In this document: in pieces, positions 4,820 through 34,815 of the stretch
Numbering within the stretch: position 1 is the stretch's first letter
Layout of the letters: each line of letters opens with the position of its first letter
From: Solirubrobacterales bacterium
GTDB lineage: Bacteria; Actinomycetota; Thermoleophilia; Solirubrobacterales; 70-9
Length of the DNA stretch: 64,000 nucleotides
Direction of reading: 5' to 3'
Assembly (NCBI GenBank): GCA_025450195.1
Contig: JANWHW010000018.1
Coordinates: forward strand, 3,174 to 67,173
The notes under the pieces: model-generated
What the model was told of the DNA's origin: nothing
The model's input: only the letters and a program-made list of their open reading frames with translations
The model's database searches: none
Made by a program: the position numbers and the translations under genes

Positions 4820-5941
4820 ATGGCCAAGTCGAAATTACCAACAAGATCGGTTGTGGCTGTACTCAGCCGTATCCTTGATTCCCCTGAGATCCAGGCACTG
4901 ATTGCTGAGCTTGAAGACACCCGCTGGACGGGTCGTCCTGGTTATCCAATGCGAGCGCTCGTCGGCTTGGCAATTGCAAAGTCTCTGTATCAGCGGCCCT
5001 GTTGGACCCAGATCGTGTCCCTCGCACAAGAGCACGATGCTCTGCGTCAAGCTCTCGGAGGCGAAGTTCCCTCTGTTCATGCCTGCTATCGCTTCACGAA
5101 GAAGCTGATCAAGTACAAGTCGCTTCGGGCTGATTGCGCTGATCGCTTGCTTGCGTCGCTGAAGGAGCTTCGCCCCGAGATGGGCGAGAACATCGCCATC
5201 GATGGCTCGGCTCTGCACGCCTACGCGAACGGGCATAAAACAACGATCCACAACGGACGTGAGCGGAAGCCAGAGGAGTTCAGCGATCCCGATGCCTCCT
5301 GGGGCCATCAGTCGGCGACCTCAACGGAGGGCAGGGGCCGAAGTATCTATGGCCATCGACTGCACATGGCTGCTTGCACGGCAACAGATTTGCCAGTGGC
5401 CTGGCATTTGAGCACAGCGCGCGATAGCGAGAAGCCAGTGGCCAGTGGCCTGCTCGATAAGACCCGCCAACGAGGGTTTGCCGCCCAGACCTGCGCGATG
5501 GACAAGGGTTATGACGCCGAAAGTACTTATGAGGAGTTTGAGGCTCGTGACTGCCACCCGGTCATCCCATTGATGAGGACGGGGTTCGTCAAGCAGGGGC
5601 GTCATCTACCTCATGAGTGCCGCCACGGCACCTGGGTCTTCGGGGGCAGCGACTACAAGCGCAAGGCAGCCAAGTGGCGTTGCCCCACAGGCGAATGCGA
5701 GGTCAGCAACCGTTGGGTCCCCGCCAGCCGCCTCCATACGTTGATCCCCCGCACGACTGATCGCTGGTTCAAGCTCAAAAGAGGCAGATCTTCGGTCGAG
5801 CGCGAGTTTGGACGCCTCAAGGACGGCTATGGCTTGAGGACGATCCGCGTCAGGGGGATTGAGAAAGTACGGCTACACGCCGACCTGACAATTCTGACGA
5901 GACTTGCCAGCTACCTCGCAAATAGCAGGGGTTTTCAGTGA
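4820..5941 (+). CDS. DDE transposase, IS4/IS5 superfamily (DUF772-like N-terminus)
   Basis: 373 aa with GRPGYPMRALVGLAIAKSLY (InsH-N-like), AMDKGYDAE, and the C-terminal SVEREFGRLKDGYGLRTIRVRG motif typical of this transposase superfamily. Confidence 0.85.
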   Translation: MAKSKLPTRSVVAVLSRILDSPEIQALIAELEDTRWTGRPGYPMRALVGLAIAKSLYQRPCWTQIVSLAQEHDALRQALGGEVPSVHACYRFTKKLIKYKSLRADCADRLLASLKELRPEMGENIAIDGSALHAYANGHKTTIHNGRERKPEEFSDPDASWGHQSATSTEGRGRSIYGHRLHMAACTATDLPVAWHLSTARDSEKPVASGLLDKTRQRGFAAQTCAMDKGYDAESTYEEFEARDCHPVIPLMRTGFVKQGRHLPHECRHGTWVFGGSDYKRKAAKWRCPTGECEVSNRWVPASRLHTLIPRTTDRWFKLKRGRSSVEREFGRLKDGYGLRTIRVRGIEKVRLHADLTILTRLASYLANSRGFQ

Positions 5942-5968
5942 AGTTTGGGTGGAGCGCCCATCCAAACT
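5942..5968 (+). terminator. hairpin immediately after the transposase stop codon (terminator or IS-end structure)
   Basis: AGTTTGGGTGG / CCATCCAAACT forms an 11-bp stem (one G-T pair) with a 5-nt loop. Confidence 0.35.
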
Positions 5969-5984
5969 GAGCTATAATTGCAGT

Positions 5985-6058
5985 CCACCTGTAGCTCAGT
6001 CTGGATAGAGCACTCCCGTCGCAGGGAGAGGTCGCGGGTCCGAATCCCGCCAGGTCTT
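5985..6058 (+). tRNA. tRNA-like sequence, probably a degenerate tRNA pseudogene (isotype unclear)
   Basis: There is a good D-arm (GCTCAGTCTGGATAGAGC) and T-stem (GCGGG/CCCGC). However, the top 2 acceptor pairs are mismatched, the anticodon loop has only 6 nt (GTCGCA), and the T-loop reads TCCGAAT instead of TTCGAAT. It abuts the IS end. Confidence 0.5.
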
Positions 6059-6132
6059 CGGAAGGCCCCCAGGCTGTGTATTCGCCGGGGGTCTTCTCTT
6101 TTTAGGGCACTTCCGTTGCTACCCTCGAAAGG

Positions 6133-6225
6133 ATGGAAGCTCTATTGAAATTCATCGTCGCCCTGATCGCGTTCGTGGTCGCGGGCCAGCGCCTGATAAC
6201 CGCCACTCGGCGACTTGGCCTGTAG
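6133..6225 (+). CDS. possible 30-aa hydrophobic peptide (speculative)
   Basis: Translates to MEALLKFIVALIAFVVAGQRLITATRRLGL, one TM-like helix plus a basic tail. The stop codon is embedded in the perfect 8-bp hairpin CCTGTAGG(6219-6226)/CCTACAGG(6235-6242). The ribosome-binding-site spacing is poor. Confidence 0.25.
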   Translation: MEALLKFIVALIAFVVAGQRLITATRRLGL

Positions 6226-6289
6226 GGCTGAAGACCTACAGGTCATCTGCGAAGCGCCGCGTTTCGCTGGCACTTTCGCTGGAGCCACC

Positions 6290-6455
6290 TAGGAGGGATT
6301 AGCGAAAACCCCGCCCACGACTGGCGGCGGCGGACACGGCGCGGTTCGGCGTCCTCGGTTGGCCAAATAGCGCTGCTATTTGGCCTCCCTGCGTCCTTGC
6401 CCCGCTTGGTCCGGCGCTCGCCAGCCGCAGACACGAGTTTCGCTAATCCCTCCTA
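6290..6455. repeat. MITE-like element: 18-bp perfect terminal inverted repeats separated by 130 bp
   Basis: TAGGAGGGATTAGCGAAA (6290-6307) pairs with TTTCGCTAATCCCTCCTA (6438-6455). An internal hairpin GGCCAAATAGC-GCT-GCTATTTGGCC has an 11-bp stem. The outermost TA on each side could be a target-site duplication. Confidence 0.6.
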
Positions 6456-6460
6456 ACGGG

Positions 6461-6482
6461 CTTTTACATCCTTTTTACATCC
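6461..6482 (+). promoter_or_regulatory. Pho-box-like direct repeats upstream of pstS
   Basis: CTTTTACATCC / TTTTTACATCC are two 11-nt direct repeats (10/11 identical). TTTACA hexamers at 6463-6468 and 6474-6479 show 11-bp periodicity, about 105 nt upstream of the pstS GTG. Confidence 0.55.
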
Positions 6483-6584
6483 TCGATACAGACAGGTAAC
6501 AAGCTGCCATAAGGCCGCTGAGAGTGTGCCGCCTGACATCGGCCCCAGGGCCGGCAATCGGAGCAACTACCAGAAGGAGACAGA

Positions 6585-7541
6585 GTGACTATCTCTAAGT
6601 GGCTCATGGTCATCGCCTCCGCGTCCGTCCTGGCGGTCGGGATCGCGGCTTGTGGCGACGATGACGAAAGCACGACCGGTGGCGGTGGAGACCTCTCAGG
6701 ATCGATTCGCATCGACGGGTCGAGCACGGTGGCCCCGCTGACCGCAGCGGTCGCCGAGCAGTTCGAAGCTGAAAACTCGGGTGTTAAAGTGACTGTCGGG
6801 ACCTCTGGCACCGGCGGTGGCTTCGAAAAGTTCTGCGCCGGCGAGACGGCGATCTCCGACGCCTCCCGCGCGATTGAGCCCGAAGAGGTCGAAGCATGCG
6901 AGAAGGCCGGGATCGGCTATGAGGAGGTGCGGGTCGCGACTGACGCACTCACCGTCGTCGTCAATCCCGACAACCCCGTCAACTGCCTCACGGTCGACCA
7001 GCTGAGCGCCATCTGGGGCCCGGATTCCGATCTCTCCAACTGGAGCCAGGTGCCCGGCCTGAACGAGGAATTCGACGAGGATCTGGCGCTCTACGGCCCA
7101 GGTACCGACTCGGGCACGTTCGATTACTTCACCGAGGAAATCAACGGTGAAGAGGGCGCTTCCCGCAAGGACTACAACAACGTCGGCGAGAACGACAACA
7201 CCACCGTCACCGGCGTTGAGGGCTCTCCGGGTGGCATCGGCTACTTCGGCTACTCCTTCTACGAGGAGAACGAAGAGGCGCTGAAGGCGCTCGAAGTCGA
7301 CAGCGGCAAAGGGTGTGTCGCTCCCTCGCCCGAAACCGCCCAAGACGGCACCTACGTGCCACTCAGCAGGCCGCTTTTCATCTATCCGAGCGCTGATGCG
7401 CTGAAGCAGGCCGAGGTGCAAGCGTTCGTCGACTATTACCTCGACAACGTCAACAGCATCGCCGAAGCGGTCGGCTTCATCCCGCTGACAGAAGAACAGC
7501 TGGCGACGTCTAAGGACGCTGCCAAAAAGGCCGGGGCCTAG
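6585..7541 (+). CDS. pstS: phosphate ABC transporter substrate-binding lipoprotein
   Basis: Lipobox (GIAACG), then [12 protein letters not shown]...[11 protein letters not shown], typical of PstS. GAAGGAGA ribosome-binding site before the GTG start. Confidence 0.95.
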
Positions 7542-7557
7542 GGCTCGGGCAGTCGCG

Positions 7558-8526
7558 ATGGAGGCAACCGGCATCGGGGCTACGGAGCCGGCGGGGGGAC
7601 CACCCCGCCGGCTCCAGGCTCCAGGCCGGCGCTACGGCGAGAAGGCCATTCAGGGCCTTCTCGCCGCCTGCGGCATCCTCTCCGTCGTCACGACGACGGC
7701 GATCGTCATCTCTCTGATCGGGCCGACGATCGGCTTCTTCGAGGTCGTCCCGGTCGGTGATTTCCTTTTCGGGACCGAATGGACCCCCCAGTTCGAGCCG
7801 CCCAGCTTCGGCGTGCTGGGGATCGTCGCCGGCACCCTCAACGTGACCCTCTGGGGCATGCTGTTTGCGAGCCCGATCGGGCTCGGCTCGGCGATCTACC
7901 TGAGTGAGTACGCCCGCCCGCGCGTTCGCAAGACGATCAAGCCGGTGCTTGAGATCCTCGCCGGCATCCCGACTGTGGCGATCGGTTTCTTCGCCGCCAG
8001 CTTCATCCTGCCGGAGATCATCCAACCTCTCTGGCCCGGCGAGTTCCTCGGCGGCGCGGTCGGCAAGCCGTTCATGGCTCTTGCCGGTGGCCTCGGCATC
8101 GGCCTGATGATCGTGCCGATCATCGCCTCGATCTCCGAGGACGCGATGTCGGCGGTGCCGAACGGGCTACGCGAAGGCGCCTACGCGATGGGCGCAACGA
8201 AGATGAAGGTGGCGACGCGGGTGGTCTTCCCGGCGGCTCTCTCTGGCATCGTCGCTTCGATCGTGCTGGCGACCTCTCGCGCCGTGGGCGAGACGATGAT
8301 CGTTCTTCTAGCCGCTGGATCCACCCCCAACTTCACCCTCAACCCGGTCGAAGCCGTGCAGACGATGACCGCCTACATCGGCGTCACGGCCACCGGCGAC
8401 ATCGGTACCGGCACGCTTGATTACAAATCGGTATTCGCGGTCGGCACCGTGCTCTTCGTCCTGACCCTGGCGATGAACCTGGTCAGCATCAGTCTGGTCC
8501 GCAAGTACCGCGAGGTCTACGAGTGA
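7558..8526 (+). CDS. pstC: phosphate ABC transporter permease
   Basis: Multi-TM protein with the EAA-loop-like motif MSAVPNGLREGAYAMGATK, positioned after pstS. Confidence 0.93.
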   Translation: MEATGIGATEPAGGPPRRLQAPGRRYGEKAIQGLLAACGILSVVTTTAIVISLIGPTIGFFEVVPVGDFLFGTEWTPQFEPPSFGVLGIVAGTLNVTLWGMLFASPIGLGSAIYLSEYARPRVRKTIKPVLEILAGIPTVAIGFFAASFILPEIIQPLWPGEFLGGAVGKPFMALAGGLGIGLMIVPIIASISEDAMSAVPNGLREGAYAMGATKMKVATRVVFPAALSGIVASIVLATSRAVGETMIVLLAAGSTPNFTLNPVEAVQTMTAYIGVTATGDIGTGTLDYKSVFAVGTVLFVLTLAMNLVSISLVRKYREVYE

Positions 8527-9461
8527 TGGCGGAGCCGGGCTCAGCAGCGCCCCGCACTCGGCTCGCCACGGCCGGCGCCAAGGCGACGACGCAAGCGATG
8601 CTGCGCGATCAGCCTCGCCGCGATGTGATCCGCAACACCGCCTTCGCCGGGCTGCTCCTGCTGGCGGTCTCGATTGCCCTGGCTGGGCTCATCGCGCTGC
8701 TGGTCCAGGCCTTCATAAAGGGCGCTCCGGCGCTCAGTACCGACCTCATCACCAACCCGCCATCGTCGATCTACCCGGAGAAAGCCGGCTTCCGGACGGC
8801 GATCCTCGGCTCGCTCGAGCTGATCGCCGGGGTGATCCTCTTCGTCGTACCGGTCGGGGTGGGGGCGGCTATCTACCTGGAGGAGTACGCGGACAAGACT
8901 CGCTGGTGGAACAGGATGATCGAGGTCAACATCCAGAACCTGGCAGCGGTGCCCTCGATCATCTACGGCATCCTCGGCTTGGCCTTCATCGTCCGCGGCC
9001 CGCTCGATCTCGGCTTCATCCTCATCGCAGGCTCGCTGACCCTGGCGCTGTTGGTGCTGCCGATGGTGATCATCGCCGCCCGCGAGGCGATCCGCGCCGT
9101 CCCCGACTCGATCAGGCAGGGCTCGCTGGCGCTGGGCGCGACCAAGTGGCAGACGGTGCGCAGCCAGGTCCTGCCGGCCTCGATTCCCGGCATCGCGACA
9201 GGGGTGATCCTTGCCGTCTCGCGGGCGCTGGGGGAGACGGCGCCGCTGCTGCTGGTCGGCGCGACCGTCTTCGTCACCTTTGATCCGACGCCGTTCTCCG
9301 ACTACTCGGCGTTGCCGGTGCAGATATTCAACTACGCGGTGCAGCCCCAGGACGAGTTTCAGGCACTGGCGGCCGCCGGGATCATCCTGATGCTGGTCGT
9401 ATTGCTGGCGATGAATTCCTTCGCGATCTGGCTACGAAATCGTTACGAGCAAAGGTGGTAG
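8523..9461 (+). CDS. pstA: phosphate ABC transporter permease
   Basis: Carries the motif [21 protein letters not shown]. Overlaps the pstC stop codon by 4 nt. Confidence 0.93.
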
Positions 9462-9471
9462 GTGGGCTAGT

Positions 9472-10383
9472 GTGGGCGAGCAGATGACCCAAGACGAGAG
9501 CAGGACTGGAACTGGGCGCGAAGCCCGAGAGGCGGCAGCCGAGCGCGCCGCGATCGCGGTGCGCCCGGATGAGTTTCACCACAGCGAGGCCGGCAGTGGC
9601 GCCAGGGAAAAGGTCTTCGAGCTAAAGGGCATCGATGTGCGCTATAGCGGCGTCGCCGCGGTCAAGGGCATCTCGATGGACATCCATCGCAAGGACGTCA
9701 CGGCATTGATCGGCCCGTCCGGCTGTGGCAAGAGCACACTGCTGCGCTGCCTCAACCGGATGAACGACCTGATCCCCAACGCCGAAGTGCAGGGTGAGCT
9801 GCTCTACCACGGTGAGGATCTCTACGGCCCGACGGTTGACCCGGTTCAGGTCCGCAAGCTGATCGGGATGGTTTTCCAGAAGCCAAACCCCTTCCCGAAG
9901 TCGATTTACGACAACGTCGCCTTTGGCCCGCGCATCCTGGGTCGCAAGGACGACCTCGACGCAACTGTCGAGCATGCCCTACGAGGGGCGGCGCTGTGGG
10001 AGGAGGTAAAGGATCGCCTCGAAGACAACGCCTTCGGCCTCTCGGGCGGCCAGCAGCAGCGCCTCTGCATCGCCCGCTGCATCGCGGTCGAGCCCGATGT
10101 GATCCTGATGGACGAGCCGTGTTCTGCGCTCGACCCGATCTCGACCGGCAAGATCGAGGATCTGATGATCGCGCTGAAGGACGAGTTCTCGATCGTCATC
10201 GTTACCCACAACATGCAACAGGCGGCCCGGGTCTCCGATCGCACCGCCTTCCTGATGGTGGAGTTGGACGCCGACGAGCAGAATCGCTGGGGCCGCTTGG
10301 TCGAGTACGACGACACCGAGAAGATCTTCACCAACCCGGCGGACCAGCGGACCGAGGACTACGTCTCGGGCAAGGTCGGGTGA
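9472..10383 (+). CDS. pstB: phosphate ABC transporter ATP-binding protein (about 45-aa N-terminal extension if the start is as given)
   Basis: Walker [10 protein letters not shown], signature LSGGQQQRL, Walker B ILMDEP, and the PstB-typical C-terminus. Confidence 0.93.
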
Positions 10384-10390
10384 CGGGCCG

Positions 10391-11077
10391 ATGGTTGAGC
10401 ACACCAGGGTCCAATACCAAGAGGAACTCGAGCAGCTGGAGGCCAGCGCTCTTGGCGGTCTCGATTTGGTCAGTGCCGCGCTCTCACGCACCCTGGAGGC
10501 GATCGAGCATCAGGACGTCGAGCTGGCGCAGCTGGTGGTCGCCGACGACGATCGCATCGACGGCCGCTACCTGGAGGTCCACCAGAGCCTGATCGCGTTG
10601 CTCGCGACTCAGTCGCCTGTGGCCACCGACCTGCGGTTGATATCGGCGCTTTTGCACGTGCTGAAGAACGTCGAGCGGATGGGCGATCAGTGTGTCAACG
10701 TCTGCAAGCTGATCCCACTCTCGGGCAACGAGCCACCGGCCGACAAGGAGATGGTGAAGAACATCCTCACCATGGGCAATCAGTCTCGTACCTTGATCAA
10801 TCAGGCGAAGCGCTCCTTCGAGGACCGCAACGTGGAGATGGCGCGAGATCTGGTTCGCCAGGATGACGTAGTCGACAATCTGAACCGGGAGTGCTTTCAC
10901 CTCGCGCTGGCGATCGGCGATGACGCCGACAAGCGCGAATGGGCGATGACGATGCTGCTTGCGGCGCGGGCGATCGAGCGGATCGGCGATAACGCTGTGG
11001 ATATCGGCGAGCAGGTTGCCTTCGTGGTGACAGGCCTGTTCAGGGAGTTTGAGGACGCCTCTCACCCAGGCGGGTAG
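10391..11077 (+). CDS. phoU: phosphate signalling complex protein PhoU
   Basis: Two PhoU repeats (ERMGDQCVNV and ERIGDNAVDIGE), positioned after pstB. Confidence 0.92.
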   Translation: MVEHTRVQYQEELEQLEASALGGLDLVSAALSRTLEAIEHQDVELAQLVVADDDRIDGRYLEVHQSLIALLATQSPVATDLRLISALLHVLKNVERMGDQCVNVCKLIPLSGNEPPADKEMVKNILTMGNQSRTLINQAKRSFEDRNVEMARDLVRQDDVVDNLNRECFHLALAIGDDADKREWAMTMLLAARAIERIGDNAVDIGEQVAFVVTGLFREFEDASHPGG

Positions 11078-11237
11078 TCGCCGATAGGCCGCTGCGCCGG
11101 CGGGTAGCGGTGGAGCTGCCCAGTGCGTTCTCTGTGCAAGCAGCCGATGTCCGCCAAGCCGGTAACCACCAGGCCCCAAATGCAAGCCCCCAGCGGGTGA
11201 GATCCGAAGTGTTTGGAAAGATCCAAGCAGGCTTCTG

Positions 11238-12143
11238 ATGCTCTGTGCGGCGATAGATATCGGGTCGAACACGACACGAGTGCTCGTGGCTGAGCCCGTC
11301 GATGGCCAGTTGAAGAAGGTGATGGAGCAGCGCGCCTACACACGCATCAACAAGGCGGCCGACGAGGATGGCCTGATCCCGGAGGAGAAGGCGCAGGAAG
11401 TCGCCGATGTGGTCGCGACTCAGGTGCGACTGGCTAGAGAGCTGGGGGCGGAGACGATCCGCTCGGTGGCGACGGCGGCTGTGCGCGAGGCCACGAACGG
11501 AGCGGAGACGGCGCGGAGGATCAGCGAGGAGTCCGGGGTGCCGGTCGAGATCCTCAGCGAGGAGGAGGAGGGAAGACTCTCCTTCATCGGCGCAACCAAG
11601 ACGCTCGGTCATCCGGTCGAGGGGAAGGTTGGGGTCGTCGACGTCGGGGGCGGCTCGACCGAGGTGATCCTCGGGACCGTTTCCGGCGGGGTCGACTGGG
11701 TTCGCTCCTGGCGGGTGGGATCAGGAGCGCTGGCGGACGAGCTGATCGCCTCCGACCCTCCGTCGGCGGCCGAGATTCGCAAGATCCGCGACCGAATCGA
11801 CGACATCTTCGAGGGGGTCGAGATCGAGCGCCCGGCGCAGGCGGTTGCGGTGGGCGGCAGCGCCACATCCCTGCGACGCCTGGTTGGGGCGGTCTTGGAA
11901 TACGAGACGCTCGAGCGCGGCATTCGGGTGCTCTCAGGCGATCCGGCTGCCGAGGTCGCGAGGCGCTTCGAGCTGGACCCTGAGCGGGTTCGGATCCTCG
12001 CCACCGGCGTCCTGCTGCTGGAGAAGGTCTCCGAGCTGCTTGGGCAGCCGCTTCAAATCGGCAAGGGCGGCTTGCGAGAGGGGATCATCCTCGATCTTCT
12101 CAACGGCAATTTCAGCGACCCAGCCCATTCCCTCGCCGCGTAG
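11238..12143 (+). CDS. ppx: Ppx/GppA-family exopolyphosphatase (N-terminal ASKHA domains only)
   Basis: AIDIGSNTTRVLVAE, VDVGGGSTEV and AVGGSATSL are actin-like ATPase motifs of the Ppx/GppA family. Confidence 0.88.
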   Translation: MLCAAIDIGSNTTRVLVAEPVDGQLKKVMEQRAYTRINKAADEDGLIPEEKAQEVADVVATQVRLARELGAETIRSVATAAVREATNGAETARRISEESGVPVEILSEEEEGRLSFIGATKTLGHPVEGKVGVVDVGGGSTEVILGTVSGGVDWVRSWRVGSGALADELIASDPPSAAEIRKIRDRIDDIFEGVEIERPAQAVAVGGSATSLRRLVGAVLEYETLERGIRVLSGDPAAEVARRFELDPERVRILATGVLLLEKVSELLGQPLQIGKGGLREGIILDLLNGNFSDPAHSLAA

Positions 12144-12220
12144 GGCGACCTCGCGGAACCCGCTCCATTGTGCGCCGCTAATCGCGCACGGGCCTGGAAT
12201 CGATCGTCTAGCCTCCGCCC

Positions 12221-12697
12221 GTGGCGCGCGCACGCGATGTCCCGGGCCTTGACTGTGGCGAGCCCTTCGCTCGGGCGGCAGCGCGCGTGGTCGAGGTGCG
12301 GGCGAGTGAGGTTTTTGCCCATTCGTATGGCGTCCTCGACATCGACAACATCGAGCATCTGCACGATATGCGGGTTGCAACACGCCGTCTGCGTGCCGCC
12401 ATGGAGGTGTTCGAGCCATGCTTTCCCGGTAAGCGCTGGCGCAAGGCGCTGAAGCGGGTGAAGGCGCTTGCCGACGCGCTGGGGGAGCGCCGTGACCGGG
12501 ACGTCGCCATCAATTTTCTCGTCGAATTCGCGGCGGACGCTCCCGAGGCCGACCGTTCCGCGCTCGCGGGGCTATTAGAAGGACTGCGAGATGAGCAGCA
12601 CCGGGCCAACGACGAGCTGGCCCCATACGTCGCGCAGCAACGACTCGAGAAGCTGCAGCAGCGTCTGCGCAAGCTGGTGAAGGCCGTGGAGGCATGA
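12221..12697 (+). CDS. CHAD-domain protein, first half
   Basis: HDMRVATRRLRAAMEVF and LGERRDRDV are CHAD helical-repeat signatures. Confidence 0.8.
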   Translation: MARARDVPGLDCGEPFARAAARVVEVRASEVFAHSYGVLDIDNIEHLHDMRVATRRLRAAMEVFEPCFPGKRWRKALKRVKALADALGERRDRDVAINFLVEFAADAPEADRSALAGLLEGLRDEQHRANDELAPYVAQQRLEKLQQRLRKLVKAVEA

Positions 12698-13116
12698 AGG
12701 CACGCGCAGTTGAAGGCCTCCGCCCGGAGGCGCCGCTTCGCGAGAACGCGGTGTCGATCCTGCGCACCCGGCTCAATGAGCTGTTCTCCTTTGCCGAGGC
12801 GGCGCTTGAGCCCGGTGCGGTGGACGCGCAGCACGACATGCGGATCGCCGCCAAGCGTTTGCGCTACGTGCTCGAGATCACCGGCTTCTGCTTTGGATCG
12901 GAGGCCGATGCCGCACGTGGTGCCGCCAGGGCGCTGCAGAGCGTTCTTGGCGACATCCGCGATTGCGAGGCGATGTTCCCGCGTGCGCAGGGGATCGATT
13001 CGCTGACGACCGTTCTACACACCCGTCGTGAGCTGCTCCTTCGCCGTTTCAGCGGCCTTTGGGAGGAGCAGGCGAAAGAGGGCATCTGGGTTGGCCTGGA
13101 GCGCGCTTTGGGCTAA
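12694..13116 (+). CDS. CHAD-domain protein, second half
   Basis: HDMRIAAKRLRYVLEI and LGDIRDCEAM motifs. The ATGA stop/start overlaps the preceding CHAD ORF. Confidence 0.8.
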   Translation: MKARAVEGLRPEAPLRENAVSILRTRLNELFSFAEAALEPGAVDAQHDMRIAAKRLRYVLEITGFCFGSEADAARGAARALQSVLGDIRDCEAMFPRAQGIDSLTTVLHTRRELLLRRFSGLWEEQAKEGIWVGLERALG

Positions 13117-13221
13117 TTCTCGATCACTGGATATTCACAGGCCGTTCCCCTTTGCTTTACAAGATTCCCCTGCAAATTGAGAATCTAAGGAGGACAACAG
13201 AACGCGAATAGGGAGACACCG

Positions 13222-15495
13222 ATGACTTCCCGAGTCGATCTGCACTGCCACTCCACCGCCTCACACCTCTCACGGCTCGGGGTACAGCGCTCGCTGGGGC
13301 TGCTCGAGTGCGCCACTCCGCCGCAGGAGGTCTATGAGCTGGCGAAGCGGCGGGGCATGGACTTTGTGACGATCACCGATCACGACACGATCGACGGCTG
13401 CCTGGAGTTGGCCGATCGTTCCGACTGCTTCGTCTCCGAGGAGCTGACCGCCCGCTTTGCCGGCGAGCCACAGGCGGTTCATGTCCTCTGTTACGGGATC
13501 ACTCCCGGAGACCATGACTGGCTGCAGGCTCATGCTGGCGATGTCGAGGCCTGCGCCATCTACCTGCATGAGAACGAGATCGCCTGCGCGCTCGCGCACC
13601 CGTTCTACGACGTCGGCGCGCCTCTTACCCGGCGTCATCGTCGTCGCCTCGCCGAGATGTTTTCTGTCTGGGAGGTCCGCAACGGGTCGCGGGCCGCGGA
13701 GCTCAACATGCCTGCCGCGATCTACATCGACACGCATGGAGGCGCCGGGATCGGCGGCTCCGACGATCACGCCGGTGTGGACATCGGGCGCACCTTCACC
13801 GAGGTGCCCTCCGCGTCCACGCCGGAAGAGTTTCTGCACTGCCTGCTCAGCGGCGATGCCCTGGTCGGCGGCGAACAGGGCAGCGCCGCCAAGTGGGCGC
13901 ACGCGGCAATGGCCCTTGCAACTCGTGCCCTCGCCCTCGATGGACGGACCGGGGGCGAGGGTGCGCCCGACCCTGCCGTTGTTTTGAAGATCGCGCAGCA
14001 GGTTGTCGGTCAGGGCGCCGCCCGCGAGGGAAAGGTCGCCGCTGACCTTGGTCCCGACGACGCCCGGGCGCTGCTCGAGGCCTGGCTCGCATCCGTCGGC
14101 CTCGAGCAGCGAGGCCGAGATCTGATCGATTACCTGCAGTCCGACGGCTTCTCCCACGCAGCTCTCTACCGCCGCGCCCGCCGCGTCCATGAGCGACGGT
14201 TGTGCGCCGCCATCGCCTTAGGCTCGCGGGCGGTTGTCGGGGGCGACGCGCCGGGGGCCTTCGGGGGCCTCTTCGAGGCTCTGGTGCCCGCCGTGCCCTA
14301 TGCGCCATCCGCCGCGTTCCTCGGCGCCGAGAAGACAAAGCTCGCCGCCCGCGAGGAGGAGCCACGTCGGGTCGCGGTGATTGTCGATGGCATCGCGTCG
14401 ATGCATGGGGTGACTCACACGATTGAGCAGATCCGCGAGCATGGGGTGTCCGGCTTTGAGGTCGAGGTCGTGGGGACCGATGCGGGCGTCGATCGCAGGC
14501 TGCCAGCCGCCGCCGAGCTGGACGTTCCCTTCTACGACGGCATGAGGCTCGGGGTTCCTGCCCTACCCGACCTCGTGGAGACGCTCGCCGAGGGCCGCTA
14601 CGACCTGATGCATGTCACCGCGCCGGGCCCGGCGGGCATTGCCGCCGTCCTGCTCAGCCGCATCACCGGAATGCCGCTGGTCGGCAGTTACCACACCGAG
14701 CTGGGCGCCTACGCTGGGCTCCGAAGCGGGGACGACGGCTTGGAGGCAATCGCACGCGCCGCGCTGGCGGCCTTCTACCGGGCGCCGTCGATAGTCCTCT
14801 CCCCAAGCCCCGCGGCAGACCGCTCGCTGATTGAGCTTGGCGTCGATCCAGGCCGTGTCGCTCGCTGGGAGCGCGGGGTCGACGTCAGCCGCTTCGACCC
14901 GTCCAAGCGCGACGCCGAGGCCTTCCCCGGCGAGCTGAAGGTCCTCTATGCCGGCCGCCAGACGCGTGAGAAGGGGGTGGACCTGCTCGCCGAGAGCTTC
15001 CTGCGCGCCCACCGGGCCGACCCTCGCTTGCACCTGCTGCTGGCCGGTGGCGGGCCCGAGGAGGAGGAGCTGCGCAGGCGCCTTGGCGATCGCGCCACCT
15101 TCCTCGGCTGGCTCGAGGGCGAGGAGTTGGCTCGGGTGTATGCCAGCGCCGACATCTTCCTCTTCTGCTCGCGCACCGACACCTATGGGCAGGTGATCCT
15201 CGAGGCCGGCGCCAGCGGTTTGCCTGTCATCGCGGTTGCCGAGGGAGGCCCCGCCTCGCTGGTCGAGAACCGCCACACGGGCATGCTCTGCCAGGCCAAT
15301 CCCGACCATGTCGCGGGGGTCGTGCTCCAGCTGGCGTCCTCGGCCTCCCTGCGTGGAGATCTGGGGGCCGCTGCGGTGCGGACAGCCCACACGCGCTCCT
15401 GGGGGCGTGCCCTGGATCAGCTGGCAGCGGGCTATCGGCGTGCACTGGATTCTGGGATCGCCGTCCAGGGACTTGCCCCGGTTCGGGCAGCCTGA
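13222..15495 (+). CDS. fusion protein: N-terminal PHP-domain phosphoesterase plus C-terminal GT4 (group 1) glycosyltransferase
   Basis: The N-terminus VDLHCHSTASH...VTITDHDTIDG...GGSDDHAG carries PHP metal-binding motifs. The C-terminus LYAGRQTREKGVDLL...DIFLFCSRTDTYGQVILEAGASGLPVIA is a GT4 E-x7-E-type motif. Confidence 0.85.
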   Translation: MTSRVDLHCHSTASHLSRLGVQRSLGLLECATPPQEVYELAKRRGMDFVTITDHDTIDGCLELADRSDCFVSEELTARFAGEPQAVHVLCYGITPGDHDWLQAHAGDVEACAIYLHENEIACALAHPFYDVGAPLTRRHRRRLAEMFSVWEVRNGSRAAELNMPAAIYIDTHGGAGIGGSDDHAGVDIGRTFTEVPSASTPEEFLHCLLSGDALVGGEQGSAAKWAHAAMALATRALALDGRTGGEGAPDPAVVLKIAQQVVGQGAAREGKVAADLGPDDARALLEAWLASVGLEQRGRDLIDYLQSDGFSHAALYRRARRVHERRLCAAIALGSRAVVGGDAPGAFGGLFEALVPAVPYAPSAAFLGAEKTKLAAREEEPRRVAVIVDGIASMHGVTHTIEQIREHGVSGFEVEVVGTDAGVDRRLPAAAELDVPFYDGMRLGVPALPDLVETLAEGRYDLMHVTAPGPAGIAAVLLSRITGMPLVGSYHTELGAYAGLRSGDDGLEAIARAALAAFYRAPSIVLSPSPAADRSLIELGVDPGRVARWERGVDVSRFDPSKRDAEAFPGELKVLYAGRQTREKGVDLLAESFLRAHRADPRLHLLLAGGGPEEEELRRRLGDRATFLGWLEGEELARVYASADIFLFCSRTDTYGQVILEAGASGLPVIAVAEGGPASLVENRHTGMLCQANPDHVAGVVLQLASSASLRGDLGAAAVRTAHTRSWGRALDQLAAGYRRALDSGIAVQGLAPVRAA

Positions 15496-15516
15496 GAAGG
15501 TGGGAGGAGCCTGACG

Positions 15517-17619
15517 TTGCCGCAGTACGATGGTCGGATCGACGATCCGACCCTTTACTTCAATCGCGAGCTCTCCTGGCTTGACTTCAATCAGCGGGTC
15601 CTCGAATTGGCTGAGGATCCCGGTGTTCCGCTGCTGGAGCGGGTTCGATTCTGTTCCATCTATGCCTCAAATCTGGATGAGTTCTTCATGGTCCGGGTCG
15701 CCGGGCTGTTCGACCAGCTCGATGCGGGTATCGACGCGCGCGGCCCGGACGGGCTCGTCCCCGGCGAGTTGATCGACGCGATCCAGACGCGAGTGCTCGA
15801 GCTCGACGGCCGTCTCCACAACTGCTTCAACGGCGTACTGCGCCCGGCGCTGGAAGAGCACGGCATTCGCATCGTGTCGCTGGGCTCCGCGACCGAGGAA
15901 GAGCGCCGCGAGATCGACGTGCGCTTCCACGAGCAGGTCTTCCCGGCGCTGACCCCGCTTGTGATCGGGTTGGGCCGGCCGTTCCCCTACATCTCCAACC
16001 TCTCGCTCAGCCTCGGCGTTCTGTTGCGCGACCCCGATTCCGGCACCGAGATCATCGCTCGCGTCAAGGTGCCGAAGGAGCTGCTTGGGCGATTCCTGCG
16101 GATTGGCGAGGGGGGCAGCGTGCTCGTTCCTCTAGAGGAGGCGATCGCCGCCAATCTCGATGCGCTCTTCCCAGGCACAGAGGTCATCGACTACGGGTAT
16201 TTCCGGGTTACCCGTGACGCTGATTTCACGGTGAGCGATGAGGCCGATGACCTGCTGCAGGCGGTCCAGAATGAGCTCCGCCGCCGCCGTTTCGGCGAGG
16301 TGGTGAGGCTCGAGGTTGCAGCTGGGATGAACTCGAAGCTGCGGGGCCAGCTGATCGATGCATTGCGCCTCGAAGACCGCGAGGTATACGACGTAGACGG
16401 GCTGATCGACCTGGCGGACCTCACCGATGTCGTCGATGTCCCGGGGCGCGCTGAGTTGCGCTACAAGCCCTGGAAACCCGTCACGCAGCCACGGCTGCAG
16501 GGGGAGGACGAGGAGCCGGTCGACATCTTCGCGGCGATCCGGCAGGGCGACATCCTCGTCCACCATCCCTACGACTCCTTTGCAACCTCTGTGGAGCGCT
16601 TCGTCGATCAGGCGGTGGCAGACCCCAACGTGTTGGCGATCAAGCAGACGGTGTACCGAACGAGCGACGACTCGCCGCTTGTGCCGGCGCTGATCCGCGC
16701 TTCCGAACGCGGCAAGCAGGCGGTCTGCATGGTGGAGCTGAAGGCTCGCTTCGACGAGGCGGCCAACATCCACTGGGCGAAGTCGCTGGAGGAGTCGGGC
16801 GTACACGTCGTCTACGGCATCCCGGGCCTGAAGACGCACGTGAAGGCCATCGTCGTCGCACGCCGCGAGGGCGATCGGGTGCGCGAGTACGTACACATCG
16901 GGACCGGCAACTACAACCCGACGACGGCGCGGATCTATACAGACCTCGGCCTGTTCACGGCGGACCCCGAAATCGGCGCGGACGTGGCCGAGATGTTCAA
17001 CTACCTGACCGGATACGGGCGGCCCGCGAGGTATCGGAAGGTGCTGGTCTCCCCGACCACGATGCGGAGTCGCATCGTCGAGGAGATCGAGGCCACCGTC
17101 GAAGCGCACTACGCCGGCGAAGAGGCGAGGATCGCGCTGAAGATGAACGCGCTGGTCGATGCCGGTTGCATCCAGGCTCTCTACGAGGCCTCGCGAGCGG
17201 GGGTTCCCGTGGACCTCAACGTGCGTGGCATCTGCTGCCTGCGCCCCGGGGTCCCTGGTCTATCCGAGAACATCCGGGTGGTCTCGGTGGTCGGGCGCTT
17301 TCTCGAGCACTCCCGAATTTATGCCTTCCGCCGCGGCGAAGAGACACGGGTCCTGACCGGATCCCCGGACTTGATGCCCCGCAACCTGGACAGCCGGGTT
17401 GAGCTGGTGACTCCGGTCGAAGACCCAGATCTCCGCCTCGAGTTGCTCGACGTGCTCGAGTGCAGCTTCGCCGACAACGTGAACGCCTGGGAGCTCGATT
17501 CGGCGGGTGTCTGGACCCGGCTCAGCCCGCCCGAGGGGGCACGGCACAGCGTTCAGGAGGAACTGTGCGAGCGCCATGCCGCGCGCGCCAGCGAGCAGCT
17601 TGCGGCGGCGGCGGGATGA
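15517..17619 (+). CDS. ppk: polyphosphate kinase 1
   Basis: 700 aa. YFNRELSWLDFNQRVL, the PLD-like HxK motifs (LKTHVKAIVV and FLEHSRIY), and the length all fit Ppk1. Confidence 0.95.
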   Translation: MPQYDGRIDDPTLYFNRELSWLDFNQRVLELAEDPGVPLLERVRFCSIYASNLDEFFMVRVAGLFDQLDAGIDARGPDGLVPGELIDAIQTRVLELDGRLHNCFNGVLRPALEEHGIRIVSLGSATEEERREIDVRFHEQVFPALTPLVIGLGRPFPYISNLSLSLGVLLRDPDSGTEIIARVKVPKELLGRFLRIGEGGSVLVPLEEAIAANLDALFPGTEVIDYGYFRVTRDADFTVSDEADDLLQAVQNELRRRRFGEVVRLEVAAGMNSKLRGQLIDALRLEDREVYDVDGLIDLADLTDVVDVPGRAELRYKPWKPVTQPRLQGEDEEPVDIFAAIRQGDILVHHPYDSFATSVERFVDQAVADPNVLAIKQTVYRTSDDSPLVPALIRASERGKQAVCMVELKARFDEAANIHWAKSLEESGVHVVYGIPGLKTHVKAIVVARREGDRVREYVHIGTGNYNPTTARIYTDLGLFTADPEIGADVAEMFNYLTGYGRPARYRKVLVSPTTMRSRIVEEIEATVEAHYAGEEARIALKMNALVDAGCIQALYEASRAGVPVDLNVRGICCLRPGVPGLSENIRVVSVVGRFLEHSRIYAFRRGEETRVLTGSPDLMPRNLDSRVELVTPVEDPDLRLELLDVLECSFADNVNAWELDSAGVWTRLSPPEGARHSVQEELCERHAARASEQLAAAAG

Positions 17620-17657
17620 CCGCTCTGGCGTCCTCGGTCGCACAATAGGATTGCCGC

Positions 17658-18278
17658 GTGGCGCGCTTCTCCCTACTGCCTCGAGATAGCACCTTCTTCG
17701 ATCTCTTCATTGAGGCTGGTCAGAACACCCTTCACGCCGCGCGCCTCTTGGATCAGATGATGGCCACATGGCCTGACGACGGGGGATTGTCGCGAGAGAT
17801 CCTCAAGGCCGAGCAGGAGGGCGATCGGATCACTCACGACATCGTCCAGCGCCTCAACTCGACGTTCGTTACGCCCATCGATCGCGAGGACATCTATGGG
17901 TTGGCGACACAGATGGACGACGTGGTCGACTACACCGAGGAAGCTGCTGATTTCCTTGGCCTGTACAAGATCGAAGCGCCCATGGCGCAGGCGCAGGCCC
18001 TGACCAAAGTGCTGGTCGGAGCGTGCGAGCAGCTTGCCGGTGCGTTGGAGCATTTGCGCGAGTTCAAGGGCCTCGATAAGTACTGGATCGAGATCCACCG
18101 GCTTGAGAACGAGGGCGACCGGATCTCTCGCGACGCCGTCGCGTCGCTGTTCTCCAATGGGATCGACCCGATGGTGGTGATTCGCTGGAAGGACATGTTT
18201 GCGGTGCTGGAGAACGCGATCGACGCGACTGAGACAGCTGCCCAGATACTCGAGGGCATCGTCATCAAGAACTCGTGA
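17658..18278 (+). CDS. DUF47 (PhoU-like) protein, putative PiT accessory regulator
   Basis: FFDLFIEAGQN...FVTPIDREDI...WKDMFAVLENAIDATE is the typical DUF47/TIGR00153 pattern, and the ORF overlaps the PiT gene. Confidence 0.88.
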   Translation: MARFSLLPRDSTFFDLFIEAGQNTLHAARLLDQMMATWPDDGGLSREILKAEQEGDRITHDIVQRLNSTFVTPIDREDIYGLATQMDDVVDYTEEAADFLGLYKIEAPMAQAQALTKVLVGACEQLAGALEHLREFKGLDKYWIEIHRLENEGDRISRDAVASLFSNGIDPMVVIRWKDMFAVLENAIDATETAAQILEGIVIKNS

Positions 18279-19387
18279 GCGCCGATGTAATTCTGGTGAT
18301 CGTCGTTGGCACAGCGCTCGCCTTCGATTTCACCAACGGCTTTCATGACACCGCCAACGTCGTCGCGACCTCGATCTCGACGCGGGCGGCAAGCCCACAG
18401 GTGGCGGTTGCGTTTGCTGCCCTGCTCAATTTCGTCGGCGCCTTCATCTCGATCTCGGTTGCGGCTACGGTGGCCAACGACGTCGTCGATGCCGCGGTAA
18501 TCACGCCGACCGTCGTTTTCGCAGGGCTGATCGGGGCGATTGCGTGGAACCTCATCACCTGGTCCTTCGGGTTGCCGTCGAGCTCTTCACACGCATTGAT
18601 CGGAGGTGTGGTCGGGTCGGCTGTCGCCGCATCGGGGCTTGACGCCGTGCTCGTCGACGGAGTGGTCGGCAAAGTGTTGGTTCCTGCCGTGATCGCGCCG
18701 CTGCTGGCCTTCACCGTCGCGGGTATCGCGATCGGGCTCTCCTACCGGATCGTGGGCGGCCAGCGGCCAGGGACGGTCACTCGAGGCTTTCGGTATGGCC
18801 AGATCGTCTCAGGGGGTCTGCTGGCACTCGCGCATGGAACCAACGATGCGCAGAAGACGATGGGGATCATCACGTTGGCGCTGATTGCCAACGGCACTCT
18901 CGGGGCCGGCGCCGACCCACCATTCTGGGTGATCGTCTCCTCGGCGGCTGCGATCGCGCTCGGCACTTACAGCGGTGGCTGGAGAATCATCAAAACGACC
19001 GGAACGCGGATCATCAAGATGGATTCGGCGCAGGGCTTTTCGGCGCAGGGTGCGGGGGCGGCGGTGATCTTGACCTCCACGCATTTCGGCTTCCCGCTCT
19101 CGACCACGCACGTGATCAACGGTGGGGTGATGGGTGCCGGGGCCGCGAAGCGGATCTCGGCGGTTCGTTGGGGGGTGGCCGGCAACATCATGATGGCTTG
19201 GCTGCTGACATTGCCTGCGGCTGCGGCCATAGGCGCGGCCGCCTATGGCGCTAGCCGGATCTTCGGTACCGGGGCGCTGGGTCCCGCGCTGGTTACGCTG
19301 GCGGCACTGTCCCTTGTTGTGGTCGCTTTCGCACGGCGATCGCAGCGAGGTGCCCCCGTGCCGGCGGGGGTTGAGGGCGGCTCATGA
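18275..19387 (+). CDS. pit: inorganic phosphate transporter, PiT family
   Basis: FDFTNGFHDTANVVATSI and AHGTNDAQKTMGII are the duplicated PiT signature. Confidence 0.93.
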   Translation: MSADVILVIVVGTALAFDFTNGFHDTANVVATSISTRAASPQVAVAFAALLNFVGAFISISVAATVANDVVDAAVITPTVVFAGLIGAIAWNLITWSFGLPSSSSHALIGGVVGSAVAASGLDAVLVDGVVGKVLVPAVIAPLLAFTVAGIAIGLSYRIVGGQRPGTVTRGFRYGQIVSGGLLALAHGTNDAQKTMGIITLALIANGTLGAGADPPFWVIVSSAAAIALGTYSGGWRIIKTTGTRIIKMDSAQGFSAQGAGAAVILTSTHFGFPLSTTHVINGGVMGAGAAKRISAVRWGVAGNIMMAWLLTLPAAAAIGAAAYGASRIFGTGALGPALVTLAALSLVVVAFARRSQRGAPVPAGVEGGS

Positions 19388-19605
19388 TCGAGACCAGCGA
19401 GTTGCTGCAGACGGTGATCGCCTCGGTGGTTGCCGGAGTGGGAGCGACCGTTGCCTTCGCGATCGCGATTTGGGGTGCGGCTCGGTTCGTTGACCTGAGT
19501 CGCAGCGAACGGTCGGTTGCGGCCGGTGCGGCAGCCGCAGTGGGCATCTTGGCCTTGGCGGTGACGCTGGCCGGGGTGGCGTTCGGCGTTCTCGCGATCG
19601 TCTAA
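19384..19605 (+). CDS. small two-TM membrane protein (hypothetical)
   Basis: ATGA overlap with the pit stop codon. Two hydrophobic helices. Confidence 0.5.
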   Translation: MIETSELLQTVIASVVAGVGATVAFAIAIWGAARFVDLSRSERSVAAGAAAAVGILALAVTLAGVAFGVLAIV

Positions 19606-19660
19606 GAACCTGCTTCAGAATGAGTGCGTTCTAAGGCCGGTTTCACGGTCGTACAATCGT

Positions 19661-20014
19661 TTGATGCGCATTGCTCGGAACGTCGCGATTGTCATGGCCC
19701 TCGCGTTCGTCGTGGCTTTTGTCCCGGCTGGCGGCAATGTGGCGATCCTCATCGTGACCGCGATCTCGATGGCATTTCTGGCGGCGATTGCTTGGGCCCT
19801 TTTTGTTTTCAGCCGTCAGAACCAGCTGACGCTGGCCGCGTTGAGCGACGGCCGCCGCGCGATCCTCTACGGAGCATTGGGCCTGATCGCGCTGTTGATC
19901 GCTGGTAGCGACGAGCTGTTCTCGAGCGGCCCCGGCACGCTGGCCTGGATCCTCTTGCTCGCTGCCGCGGTAACCGCCATCTGGCGGATCTGGACCGAAG
20001 CGAATACGTACTGA
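19661..20014 (+). CDS. four-TM membrane protein (hypothetical)
   Basis: 117-aa hydrophobic ORF with correct third-position G+C bias. Confidence 0.55.
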   Translation: MMRIARNVAIVMALAFVVAFVPAGGNVAILIVTAISMAFLAAIAWALFVFSRQNQLTLAALSDGRRAILYGALGLIALLIAGSDELFSSGPGTLAWILLLAAAVTAIWRIWTEANTY

Positions 20015-20118
20015 GTTCGGCTCGCCGGCACCCACTCGAGCCTTTCGAGACAGATTCGGCGCTCAAGGTTTTGACTTGATGCGCAACGCGTGAGCCATGG
20101 GCTGGCAGGGTCGCGAGG

Positions 20119-20475
20119 GTGCCGTCCCAGACCGTCAGGAGCTCGAGCCGTAGGGAGGGCGGAACCGCCTCGGTCGAGCTGATCGCGGTGATTCCGTTCC
20201 TGCTGTTGGCGGTTCTGGTGGCGGCACAGCTTGCCCTCGCCGGGCAGGCCCTGTGGTCGGCGGGGGTTGCCGCCAGGGCGGGGGCACGGGCCGCAGTGGT
20301 CGGGCGAGAGGCGAAGGCCGCGGCTCGTCAGGCGCTGCCCCCCTCGATGCGCCCTGGGGCGAAGGTGCGCGACGACGACGCCGTCTCGGTGCGGGTCTCG
20401 GTGCCTCGACTCCTGCCGGGGCTACCTCAGTTGACTGTGGAGGCTGAGACGGATCTGGGCTCCGGCGATGGATGA
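20119..20475 (+). CDS. TadE-like pseudopilin-type protein
   Basis: The N-terminus GGTASVELIAVIPFLLLAVLV carries the TadE/TadF-type motif (G..xVE + TM). Confidence 0.7.
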   Translation: MPSQTVRSSSRREGGTASVELIAVIPFLLLAVLVAAQLALAGQALWSAGVAARAGARAAVVGREAKAAARQALPPSMRPGAKVRDDDAVSVRVSVPRLLPGLPQLTVEAETDLGSGDG

Positions 20476-20836
20476 CGCCTGTCGACGATCTGGAGAGTCC
20501 ATGCGCCTGAGTGACTCGTCTGGTCAGGCTGCCATCGAGCTGGTGGCCGGCTTGCCTGCCCTGCTGCTTGCCGGCCTAGTCGCCCTCCAGCTTCTCGCCG
20601 CGGGCTATGCGCTGACCCTCGCCGATGGAGCCGCGGAGGCAGGTGCCTTGGCGCTTGCCTCTGGGCGGCCGGTTGTCCCCGCCGTCCGCGGCGCCCTGCC
20701 TGGCTGGGCTGAGAGCGACGTCGACGTTGTGGTGAGCGGCGGTGAGGTCACGGTCCGCGTTCGGGCCCCATCGCCGCTCCCGGCCGTTGAAGATCGACTC
20801 GCGATTGCGTCTTCGGCTGCCGCCAGACCGAGATGA
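20468..20836 (+). CDS. TadE-like pseudopilin-type protein (second copy)
   Basis: Carries GQAAIELVAGLPALLLAGLV. Overlaps the upstream ORF. Confidence 0.65.
   Translation: MDDACRRSGESMRLSDSSGQAAIELVAGLPALLLAGLVALQLLAAGYALTLADGAAEAGALALASGRPVVPAVRGALPGWAESDVDVVVSGGEVTVRVRAPSPLPAVEDRLAIASSAAARPR

Positions 20837-33753: not shown

Positions 33754-34815
<1,062 letters not shown>

Follow-up and report, generated by a model that had tools for sequence, protein, structure and literature searches.

We examined a 64,000-nucleotide stretch of a Solirubrobacterales genome (assembly GCA_025450195.1, contig JANWHW010000018.1, positions 3,174 to 67,173 of the forward strand; hereafter the window), in which one open reading frame (ORF) at 13222-15495 (+) encodes a 757-residue protein (P0001) that joins a PHP metal-dependent phosphoesterase domain to a GT4 glycosyltransferase. 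We observed this architecture directly, together with intact catalytic motifs, the folds of the domains, a conserved PHO box upstream of the gene, and the gene neighbourhoods of its relatives. From these observations we infer, with confidence that we put at about even, a cytoplasmic bifunctional Pho-regulon enzyme that renovates membrane lipids, the PHP domain exposing diacylglycerol (DAG) and the GT4 domain glycosylating it; in this reading the regulation, the substrates of the two domains, and the sequence in which the reactions run are inferences.

Under the proposed mechanism, phosphate scarcity would lead a PhoP-type regulator to bind the PHO box at 13122-13165 and activate a promoter serving the PHP-GT4 gene together with ppk1, a DUF47 gene, and pit. 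The PHP domain, as a di- or trinuclear metal phosphoesterase, would strip the phosphate or phospho-headgroup from a glycerophospholipid or phosphatidate, freeing phosphorus and leaving DAG exposed. The fused retaining GT4 would then move the sugar of a nucleoside diphosphate (NDP)-sugar, with UDP-GlcNAc, UDP-Glc, or UDP-GlcA as candidate donors, onto the exposed hydroxyl to give an alpha-glycosyl-DAG, which a second adjacent glycosyltransferase or deacetylase might elaborate in some lineages. A helical linker would join the two catalytic domains and may supply a membrane or substrate surface; in distant homologues, where the linker is basic, its sequence suggests that this surface may bind membranes or polyanions.

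Architecture and conservation of the fusion

The initial annotation, made from the sequence alone, had described a 757-residue protein with a PHP domain, a linker, and a GT4 domain, and the ORF, Pfam, and fold evidence agree with it exactly. The gene starts with ATG, 6 nucleotides (nt) downstream of a ribosome-binding site read from the sequence as GGGAG (13211-13215, +), where the stretch 'gggagacaccgATG' is kept among relatives. Along the + strand, the protein divides into the PHP domain (residues 1-220, 13222-13881), an all-helical linker domain defined by AlphaFold2 secondary structure (residues 221-378, 13882-14355), the N-terminal, acceptor-side Rossmann domain of the glycosyltransferase (residues 379-560, 14356-14901), and its C-terminal, nucleotide-sugar domain with the tail and stop codon (residues 561-757, 14902-15495). 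An AlphaFold model made from 31 relatives reached a pLDDT of 88.6, and the full-length model is compact, with a pTM of 0.86.

The PHP domain is weak by sequence profiles yet clear by fold. Against the PF02811 (PHP) profile, whose gathering score is 26.4 bits, the domain reached 18.3 bits, and PHP_C was borderline (21.3-22.8 bits against a threshold of 21.3), while the NCBIfam CehA/McbA metallohydrolase profile gave 41.7 bits across residues 4-215. In structural alignments with VIA-align, residues 1-219 matched the distorted (beta/alpha)7 barrel of the PHP fold, with Z scores of 19.7 against 3e38 (BVU_3505), 18.6 against 3o0f (BAD_1165), 17.8 against 2anu (TM0559), 17.3 against PsfC, and 16.1 against RNase AM (9etk), and Foldseek matched the domain to RNase AM (7ug9) with an E-value of 3.7e-8. 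The PHP motifs, which the initial annotation had allowed might prove degenerate on alignment, are not degenerate: relatives down to about 30% identity keep H8-x-H10, D53-H54-D55, E74, H87, H126, and D181-D182-H183 with little or no variation, and these residues line up with the metal-ligand motifs of 3e0f and 2yb1. Eight of the nine metal ligands (H8, H10, H54, E74, H87, H126, D181, and H183) are present and either invariant or at least 90% conserved; the ninth, the Asp that follows HxH, is variable and is H15 in the window protein. The fusion shares its fold (Z of 16-20) and its ligand motifs (HxH, DH, E, H, H, DxH) with the COG0613/TrpH-type PHP phosphoesterases, namely RNase AM, the pAp phosphatase Cv1693, BAD_1165, TM0559, and BVU_3505. 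It differs from them at H15, in having no insertion domain, in the extra invariant acidic residues D55 and D182, and in continuing into a novel helical domain and a GT4.

The glycosyltransferase half scored above the Pfam cut-offs for both Glyco_transf_4 (residues 397-557, 66.8 bits) and Glycos_transf_1 (residues 565-718, 94.2 bits), and its GT-B fold matched MshA, BshA, and HepE with TM scores on the target of 0.74-0.77. TPGPxG and H491-T492 are invariant in the acceptor-side domain, as are D653-x7-E661 and an EAxASG motif in the nucleotide-sugar domain. The conserved D653-x7-E661 (TDTYGQVILE) may correspond to an EX7E-type donor site, with Asp in place of the first Glu. The motifs PxY..L.L.VP, TPGPxG, and SYHT may resemble those of SQD2/SqdX-type DAG glycosyltransferases, and we did not use this resemblance as evidence.

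Between the catalytic domains, the linker (residues 221-378) had no Pfam or NCBIfam match and no convincing structural match, the structure searches being dominated by residues 1-219. Its conserved residues are G217, G220, H227, P278, P359, and Y360. Within the Thermoleophilia clade the linker carries a net charge near zero, whereas that of distant members is strongly basic (+8 to +18); in four of these members (P0238, P0258, P0266, and P0269 in alignment A3) it has a net charge of +11 to +18 and a pI of 10-11.

Misassembly or a frameshift, which the initial annotation had named as a possible source of the fusion, is ruled out by the recurrence of the same length and architecture in hundreds of loci. 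A protein search returned 120 full-length homologue clusters at 77-85% identity, and when one genome per species was scanned, 582 loci encoding the fusion were confirmed, most of them in Thermoleophilia/Solirubrobacterales and several on closed chromosomes. The best 80 of the 582 all belong to Solirubrobacterales/Thermoleophilia, and other classes as well as metagenomes contain full-length fused relatives at 30-36% identity. Of 401 genomes sampled evenly across the phylum, 22 had the N-terminal module, which was spread patchily (6 of 8 in one sister family, 7 of 31 in a distant family, and few elsewhere). We conclude that the fusion is genuine, old, and widely conserved. The initial annotation knew of no characterised enzyme with this architecture, and our structure and literature searches brought up none, nor any solved structure or paper on a PHP-GT4 protein; the literature on PHP with glycosyltransferase and ppk, or on PHP with phosphate starvation, contained nothing about the fused architecture. 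A search for stand-alone GT4 relatives with informative names gave only contig-end fragments of the fusion family.

Shorter natural forms of about 600-660 residues also exist, which consist of the PHP domain, the linker, and only the acceptor-side half of the GT4. Their loci, L105 (7978-9786, -), L111 (7061-8980, -), and L119 (7001-8986, +), come from another actinobacterial family and from metagenomes.

A predicted PHO box upstream of the fusion gene

The 105-nt gap 5' of the fusion gene contains a predicted PHO box (13122-13165, +) of four 11-nt direct repeat units (GATCACtggat ATTCACaggcc GTTCCCctttg CTTTACaagat). Its last unit overlaps the -35 hexamer of a sigma-70-like promoter, TTTACA-17-GAGAAT (13156-13184, +), which lies in a region conserved in relatives and is the sole promoter-like site found in 6200-20600. 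A second predicted PHO box is found 5' of pstS (6462-6505, +). Both arrays share the architecture of actinomycete PhoP PHO boxes, which are built of 11-nt direct repeat units with a GTTCACC core (PMC4415409). Whereas the window holds two such arrays, 30 shuffles yielded none, and the whole 2.18-Mb genome has only three loci at this score: pstS, the PHP-GT4 gene, and a gene for a receiver-less PhoB-type winged-helix protein. Arrays scoring at least 18 lie upstream of the orthologue in 67 of 78 loci, including loci without ppk1, compared with 12 of 740 background windows. On these sequences, the fusion gene is predicted to be under phosphate-starvation control through its PHO box.

The initial annotation had attached a functional meaning to what it called a fixed position between CHAD (12221-13116) and ppk1 (15517-17619). 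The gene does lie between these two in the window, but the position is not fixed. When loci of at least 70% identity are taken as close and the others as distant, ppk1 is directly downstream in 52 of 53 close loci and in 8 of 21 distant ones, and a CHAD pair is directly upstream in 19 of 56 close loci and in 1 of 20 distant ones. Because the PHO box is kept where ppk1 adjacency is lost, and CHAD is often absent, the constant feature is Pho control rather than the CHAD/ppk1 position; the conserved PHO box, which the initial annotation had overlooked, is the deeper link.

The third-strongest PHO-type array of the genome (about 34605-34648, locus L113) lies 5' of G000:C31:34271-34594 (-), which encodes a 107-residue protein consisting of an OmpR/PhoB winged-helix DNA-binding domain alone, without a receiver domain. 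This protein may be an autoregulated, receiver-less Pho regulator.

Candidate substrates and alternative functions

Several loci in distant and unrelated lineages place the fusion gene beside genes of lipid or phosphate metabolism. At locus L114, it stands in a series of an ABC transporter, a GDPD glycerophosphodiesterase, PHP-GT4, a second GT4, and a UDP-glucose dehydrogenase (Ugd); at L117, a Ppx-GppA gene follows 6 nt downstream; and at L121, the neighbours are a DUF2334 deacetylase-like gene and a PF04185 phospholipase-C/acid-phosphatase-family gene. Second glycosyltransferases also adjoin the fusion gene at L086, L089, L106, L108, and L112. The partner glycosyltransferases are nearest to curated glycerolipid glycosyltransferases, with scores of 226.6 bits against UgtP-type diglucosyl-DAG synthase, 224.6, 145, and 129 bits against N-acetylglucosaminyl-phosphatidylglycerol (GlcNAc-PG) synthase, and 140 and 89 bits against IagA/BgsA together with the processive DAG alpha-glucosyltransferase. 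For the GT4 domain of the fusion itself, GlcNAc-PG synthase, a lipid-headgroup enzyme, was the best curated match in 17 of 17 diverse members (best E-value 1e-42, against 1e-32 for MshA). Since the scores fall far below the family cut-offs, we treat these matches as leads and not as family memberships.

The short form at L119, which lacks the GT4 catalytic half, overlaps the start of a UgtP-like MGDG_synth/GT28 gene by 4 nt and is thus predicted to be translationally coupled to a UgtP-like DAG glycosyltransferase. This overlap ties the PHP module to DAG glycosylation, and the retention of the acceptor-side GT4 half in the short forms suggests that the PHP module acts on the acceptor of the glycosyltransferase, most simply DAG. 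Taken together, the neighbours in distant lineages, the glycerolipid-like partner transferases, and the short forms point to phosphate-sparing glycerolipid chemistry. New in this analysis are the UgtP-like coupling of the short form, the neighbourhoods with GDPD, Ugd, and PF04185, and the finding that the PHO box is rare across the genome. The initial annotation had suggested coupled phosphate-ester hydrolysis and glycosyl transfer: the coupling itself is plausible, as the short forms keep the PHP domain, the linker, and the acceptor-side GT4, but the products proposed for it found no backing. Nothing points to a polyphosphate (polyP)-linked glycoconjugate, and the neighbours in other lineages favour glycerolipid glycosylation over a compatible solute.

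The known system closest to this reading in its logic is the PlcP-Agt pair of SAR11, roseobacters, rhizobia/Agrobacterium, Pseudomonas, and Burkholderia. Like the fusion, for which the regulation is predicted from its PHO box, PlcP-Agt pairs a Pho-regulated metal phosphoesterase with a GT4, follows the proposed route from phospholipid through DAG to glycosyl-DAG, and often has second glycosyltransferases and a UDP-GlcA supply nearby. Unlike the fusion, PlcP is a calcineurin-like metallophosphoesterase, whereas the fusion has a PHP (beta/alpha)7 barrel and no Metallophos match, joins both activities through a 158-residue helical domain, is probably co-transcribed with ppk1, and is hosted by Gram-positive Actinomycetota. 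By analogy, the fusion may be a fused, non-homologous counterpart of PlcP-Agt, a comparison to which we give roughly equal chances of holding and of failing. More tentatively, the PHP domain might be the first PHP-family phospholipase C or phosphatidate phosphatase, channelling DAG into a phosphorus-free glycolipid through the fused glycosyltransferase.

Swapping phospholipids for glycolipids is a major bacterial route through phosphate scarcity, with enzymes known mainly from Proteobacteria. Phosphate-starved actinobacteria make phosphorus-free glycolipids and accumulate glycosyl-DAGs, and in phosphate-starved M. tuberculosis, GlcA-DAG rises about 4100-fold, the responsible enzymes being unidentified (PMC12722247). 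With members in hundreds of Thermoleophilia species from soil, the fusion family offers a specific and plentiful candidate for such enzymes in Actinomycetota. If the lipid reading is correct, the fusion would be a new single-polypeptide lipid-renovation machine in Gram-positive Actinomycetota, would extend PHP chemistry to lipids, and could help to track down the enzymes with which phosphate-starved mycobacteria make their glycolipids. Even with another substrate, it would be a core Pho-regulon member, as one of the three top-scoring PHO-box targets in the genome.

A number of points weigh against lipid renovation. We know of no PHP-family enzyme that cleaves phospholipids. The nearest PHP structures are uncharacterised proteins or nucleotide and RNA enzymes (RNase AM and Cv1693), and the PHP-fold protein PsfC is an oxidase and not a phosphoesterase, so the fold can host other chemistry. 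A basic N-domain that binds membranes is common among lipid GT-B enzymes; in the window's clade the fusion is acidic, its GT4 N-domain having a pI of about 5 and a net charge of -4 to -11, and the protein has no hydrophobic segment (maximum KD19 1.39). Both fold and PDB profile place the GT4 half equally near to the soluble-acceptor enzymes MshA, GlgM, BshA, and sucrose-phosphate synthase (SPS) and to PimA/PimB', the PDB-profile and Foldseek rankings leaving lipid-acceptor and soluble-acceptor enzymes unseparated. The curated family matches all lie far below cut-off (120.3 bits against 480 for GlcNAc-PG synthase), the UgtP-like coupling was seen in one metagenomic contig only, and some contexts (GH31, a sugar kinase with a nucleotidyltransferase, a TRAP transporter) are uninformative.

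The even placement of the GT4 fold near soluble-acceptor enzymes makes it possible, although in our view unlikely, that the fusion is a synthase-phosphatase for a soluble glycoside, in which the GT4 glycosylates a phosphorylated small acceptor (a sugar phosphate, inositol phosphate, or glycerol-3-phosphate) and the PHP domain then dephosphorylates the product, which corresponds to the idea in the initial annotation. Such an enzyme would resemble sucrose-phosphate synthase and phosphatase (SPS/SPP), MshA/MshA2, or GgpS/GgpP, with PHP in place of the usual HAD phosphatase. The best structural and PDB-profile matches of the GT4 half are MshA, with inositol-3-phosphate as acceptor, and GlgM, with glucose-1-phosphate, alongside BshA and SPS; the acidic protein without a membrane segment would suit this reading, as would genes found nearby in some lineages, namely a PIG-L deacetylase (L107), a sugar kinase next to an NDP-sugar pyrophosphorylase (L078), and a divergent GH31 alpha-glycosidase (L065, L071, and L075). 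SPS-SPP, TPS-TPP, and MshA with the unidentified MshA2 likewise combine a glycosyltransferase and a phosphatase in one pathway or polypeptide, and MshA and SPS are themselves GT4 enzymes; their phosphatases, however, are HAD-type and C-terminal, the fusion has no HAD domain, and Pho control and lipid-related neighbours do not fit the type. This reading would not account for the conserved PHO box, nor for neighbours of the GDPD, PLC-family, Ppx, and glycerolipid-glycosyltransferase kinds. SPS models fit poorly (TIGR02472, 28.5-29.9 bits against a cut-off of 576), and the residues that we take to bind phosphate in MshA, Y110 and R154, align to P468 and to a non-conserved R512. The mycothiol version, an MshA and MshA2 fusion, is excluded, as no MshC or MshA above cut-off was found in six fusion-bearing genomes (that of the window and five others); the MshA model (TIGR03449) scored 82.7 bits against a cut-off of 462.5.

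Another phosphate-sparing envelope glycoconjugate has a small chance of being the product, either through glycosylation of the phosphatidylglycerol (PG) headgroup in the manner of GpgS, with PHP as the phosphatidylglycerophosphate phosphatase, or through a step towards a phosphorus-free anionic wall polymer or lipoglycan anchor, akin to the PhoP-induced switch to teichuronic acid. In Bacillus, the teichuronic acid genes are Pho-activated (PMC4415409), and a UDP-glucose dehydrogenase at L114 and weak TuaC matches would be in keeping with such a product. Among curated families, the GT4 domain and several of its partner GT4s match GpgS (the GlcNAc-PG synthase of P. aeruginosa; NF053787) best, and the DUF2334 and PIG-L deacetylases near some loci recall gpgS-gpgD (PMC12713373). 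Yet all scores are far under the family cut-offs, so that the fusion is not a GpgS orthologue, and it differs from GpgS in its Pho-regulon context, its fused PHP domain, and loci without a gpgF-type flippase. Moreover, PG glycosylation spares no phosphorus, polymerase, flippase, and polyprenyl-phosphate genes were not found nearby in the window, and the UgtP-like partner at L119 favours DAG.

Very little weight falls on a direct polyP function, in which the PHP domain would hydrolyse polyP or a nucleotide and the GT4 would build a glycan or primer linked to polyP granules. It would account for the position beside ppk1, ppx, and CHAD, for the near-constant ppk1 downstream of the gene in close relatives, and for the Ppx-GppA gene directly downstream at the distant L117, and the strongly basic linker of distant members could bind a polyanion. 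In the window's own clade, however, the linker is near neutral, CHAD is mostly absent across the loci, and 13 of 21 distant loci have lost ppk1 adjacency while the PHO box is retained; we know of no polyP-glycan. The clustering with ppk1 is explained by ppk itself being a usual Pho-regulon member (PMC4415409). The least probable alternative is that the two domains are chemically uncoupled, with PHP cleaving the NDP by-product, scavenging phosphate from nucleotides such as pAp, or serving as a non-catalytic regulatory module. The closest characterised PHP relatives, Cv1693 and RNase AM, do act on nucleotides or RNA, but the short forms drop the nucleotide-binding half and keep the PHP domain, the linker, and the acceptor-side half, which argues against an NDP-centred role, and a dead domain would be hard to reconcile with the invariant metal ligands.

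Gene order in the window and minor features

The fusion gene lies in a run of phosphate genes in the order pstSCAB-phoU, ppx, split CHAD, PHP-GT4, ppk1, DUF47, and pit. On the + strand, the second PHO box and pstS-pstC-pstA-pstB-phoU occupy 6462-11077, followed by ppx and two CHAD ORFs identified by Pfam (11238-13116). The CHAD ORFs, 12221-12697 and 12694-13116 (+), are in different frames with an ATGA stop/start overlap and match positions 7-132 and 141-221 of the CHAD profile. In relatives, where the pair is present in only a subset, two CHAD matches also lie about 470 nt apart, which suggests that the split into two genes is conserved and does not stem from a frameshift error. Downstream, ppk1 (polyphosphate kinase 1; 15517-17619, +), with four PPK domains, begins 21 nt after the fusion gene and is probably co-transcribed with it. 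Next come a DUF47/PhoU_div gene and, with its start overlapping the stop of the former, a PiT-family phosphate transporter gene (together 17658-19387, +; by Pfam); both are syntenic in relatives.

An Rfam scan of 6000-20500 found no RNA element, and a terminator scan gave matches no more numerous than in shuffles. Two small ORFs after pit (19661-20014 and 20119-20475, +), of 117 and 118 residues, had no Pfam match and are syntenic in nearly all close relatives. In Thermoleophilia loci without an adjacent ppk1 (L065, L071, and L075, about 5600-7900, -), a GH31 alpha-glycosidase-family gene diverges from the PHO-box intergenic region. A perfect 9-bp hairpin, GGTCGGATC-gac-GATCCGACC, lies at 15532-15552 (+), inside the annotated 5' end of ppk1 and 37 nt past the PHP-GT4 stop. 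Upstream of the phosphate genes, the 3.4 kb that separate a response-regulator gene (2340-3194) from the pstS promoter contain a DDE transposase (DDE_Tnp_1) gene at 4820-5941 (+).

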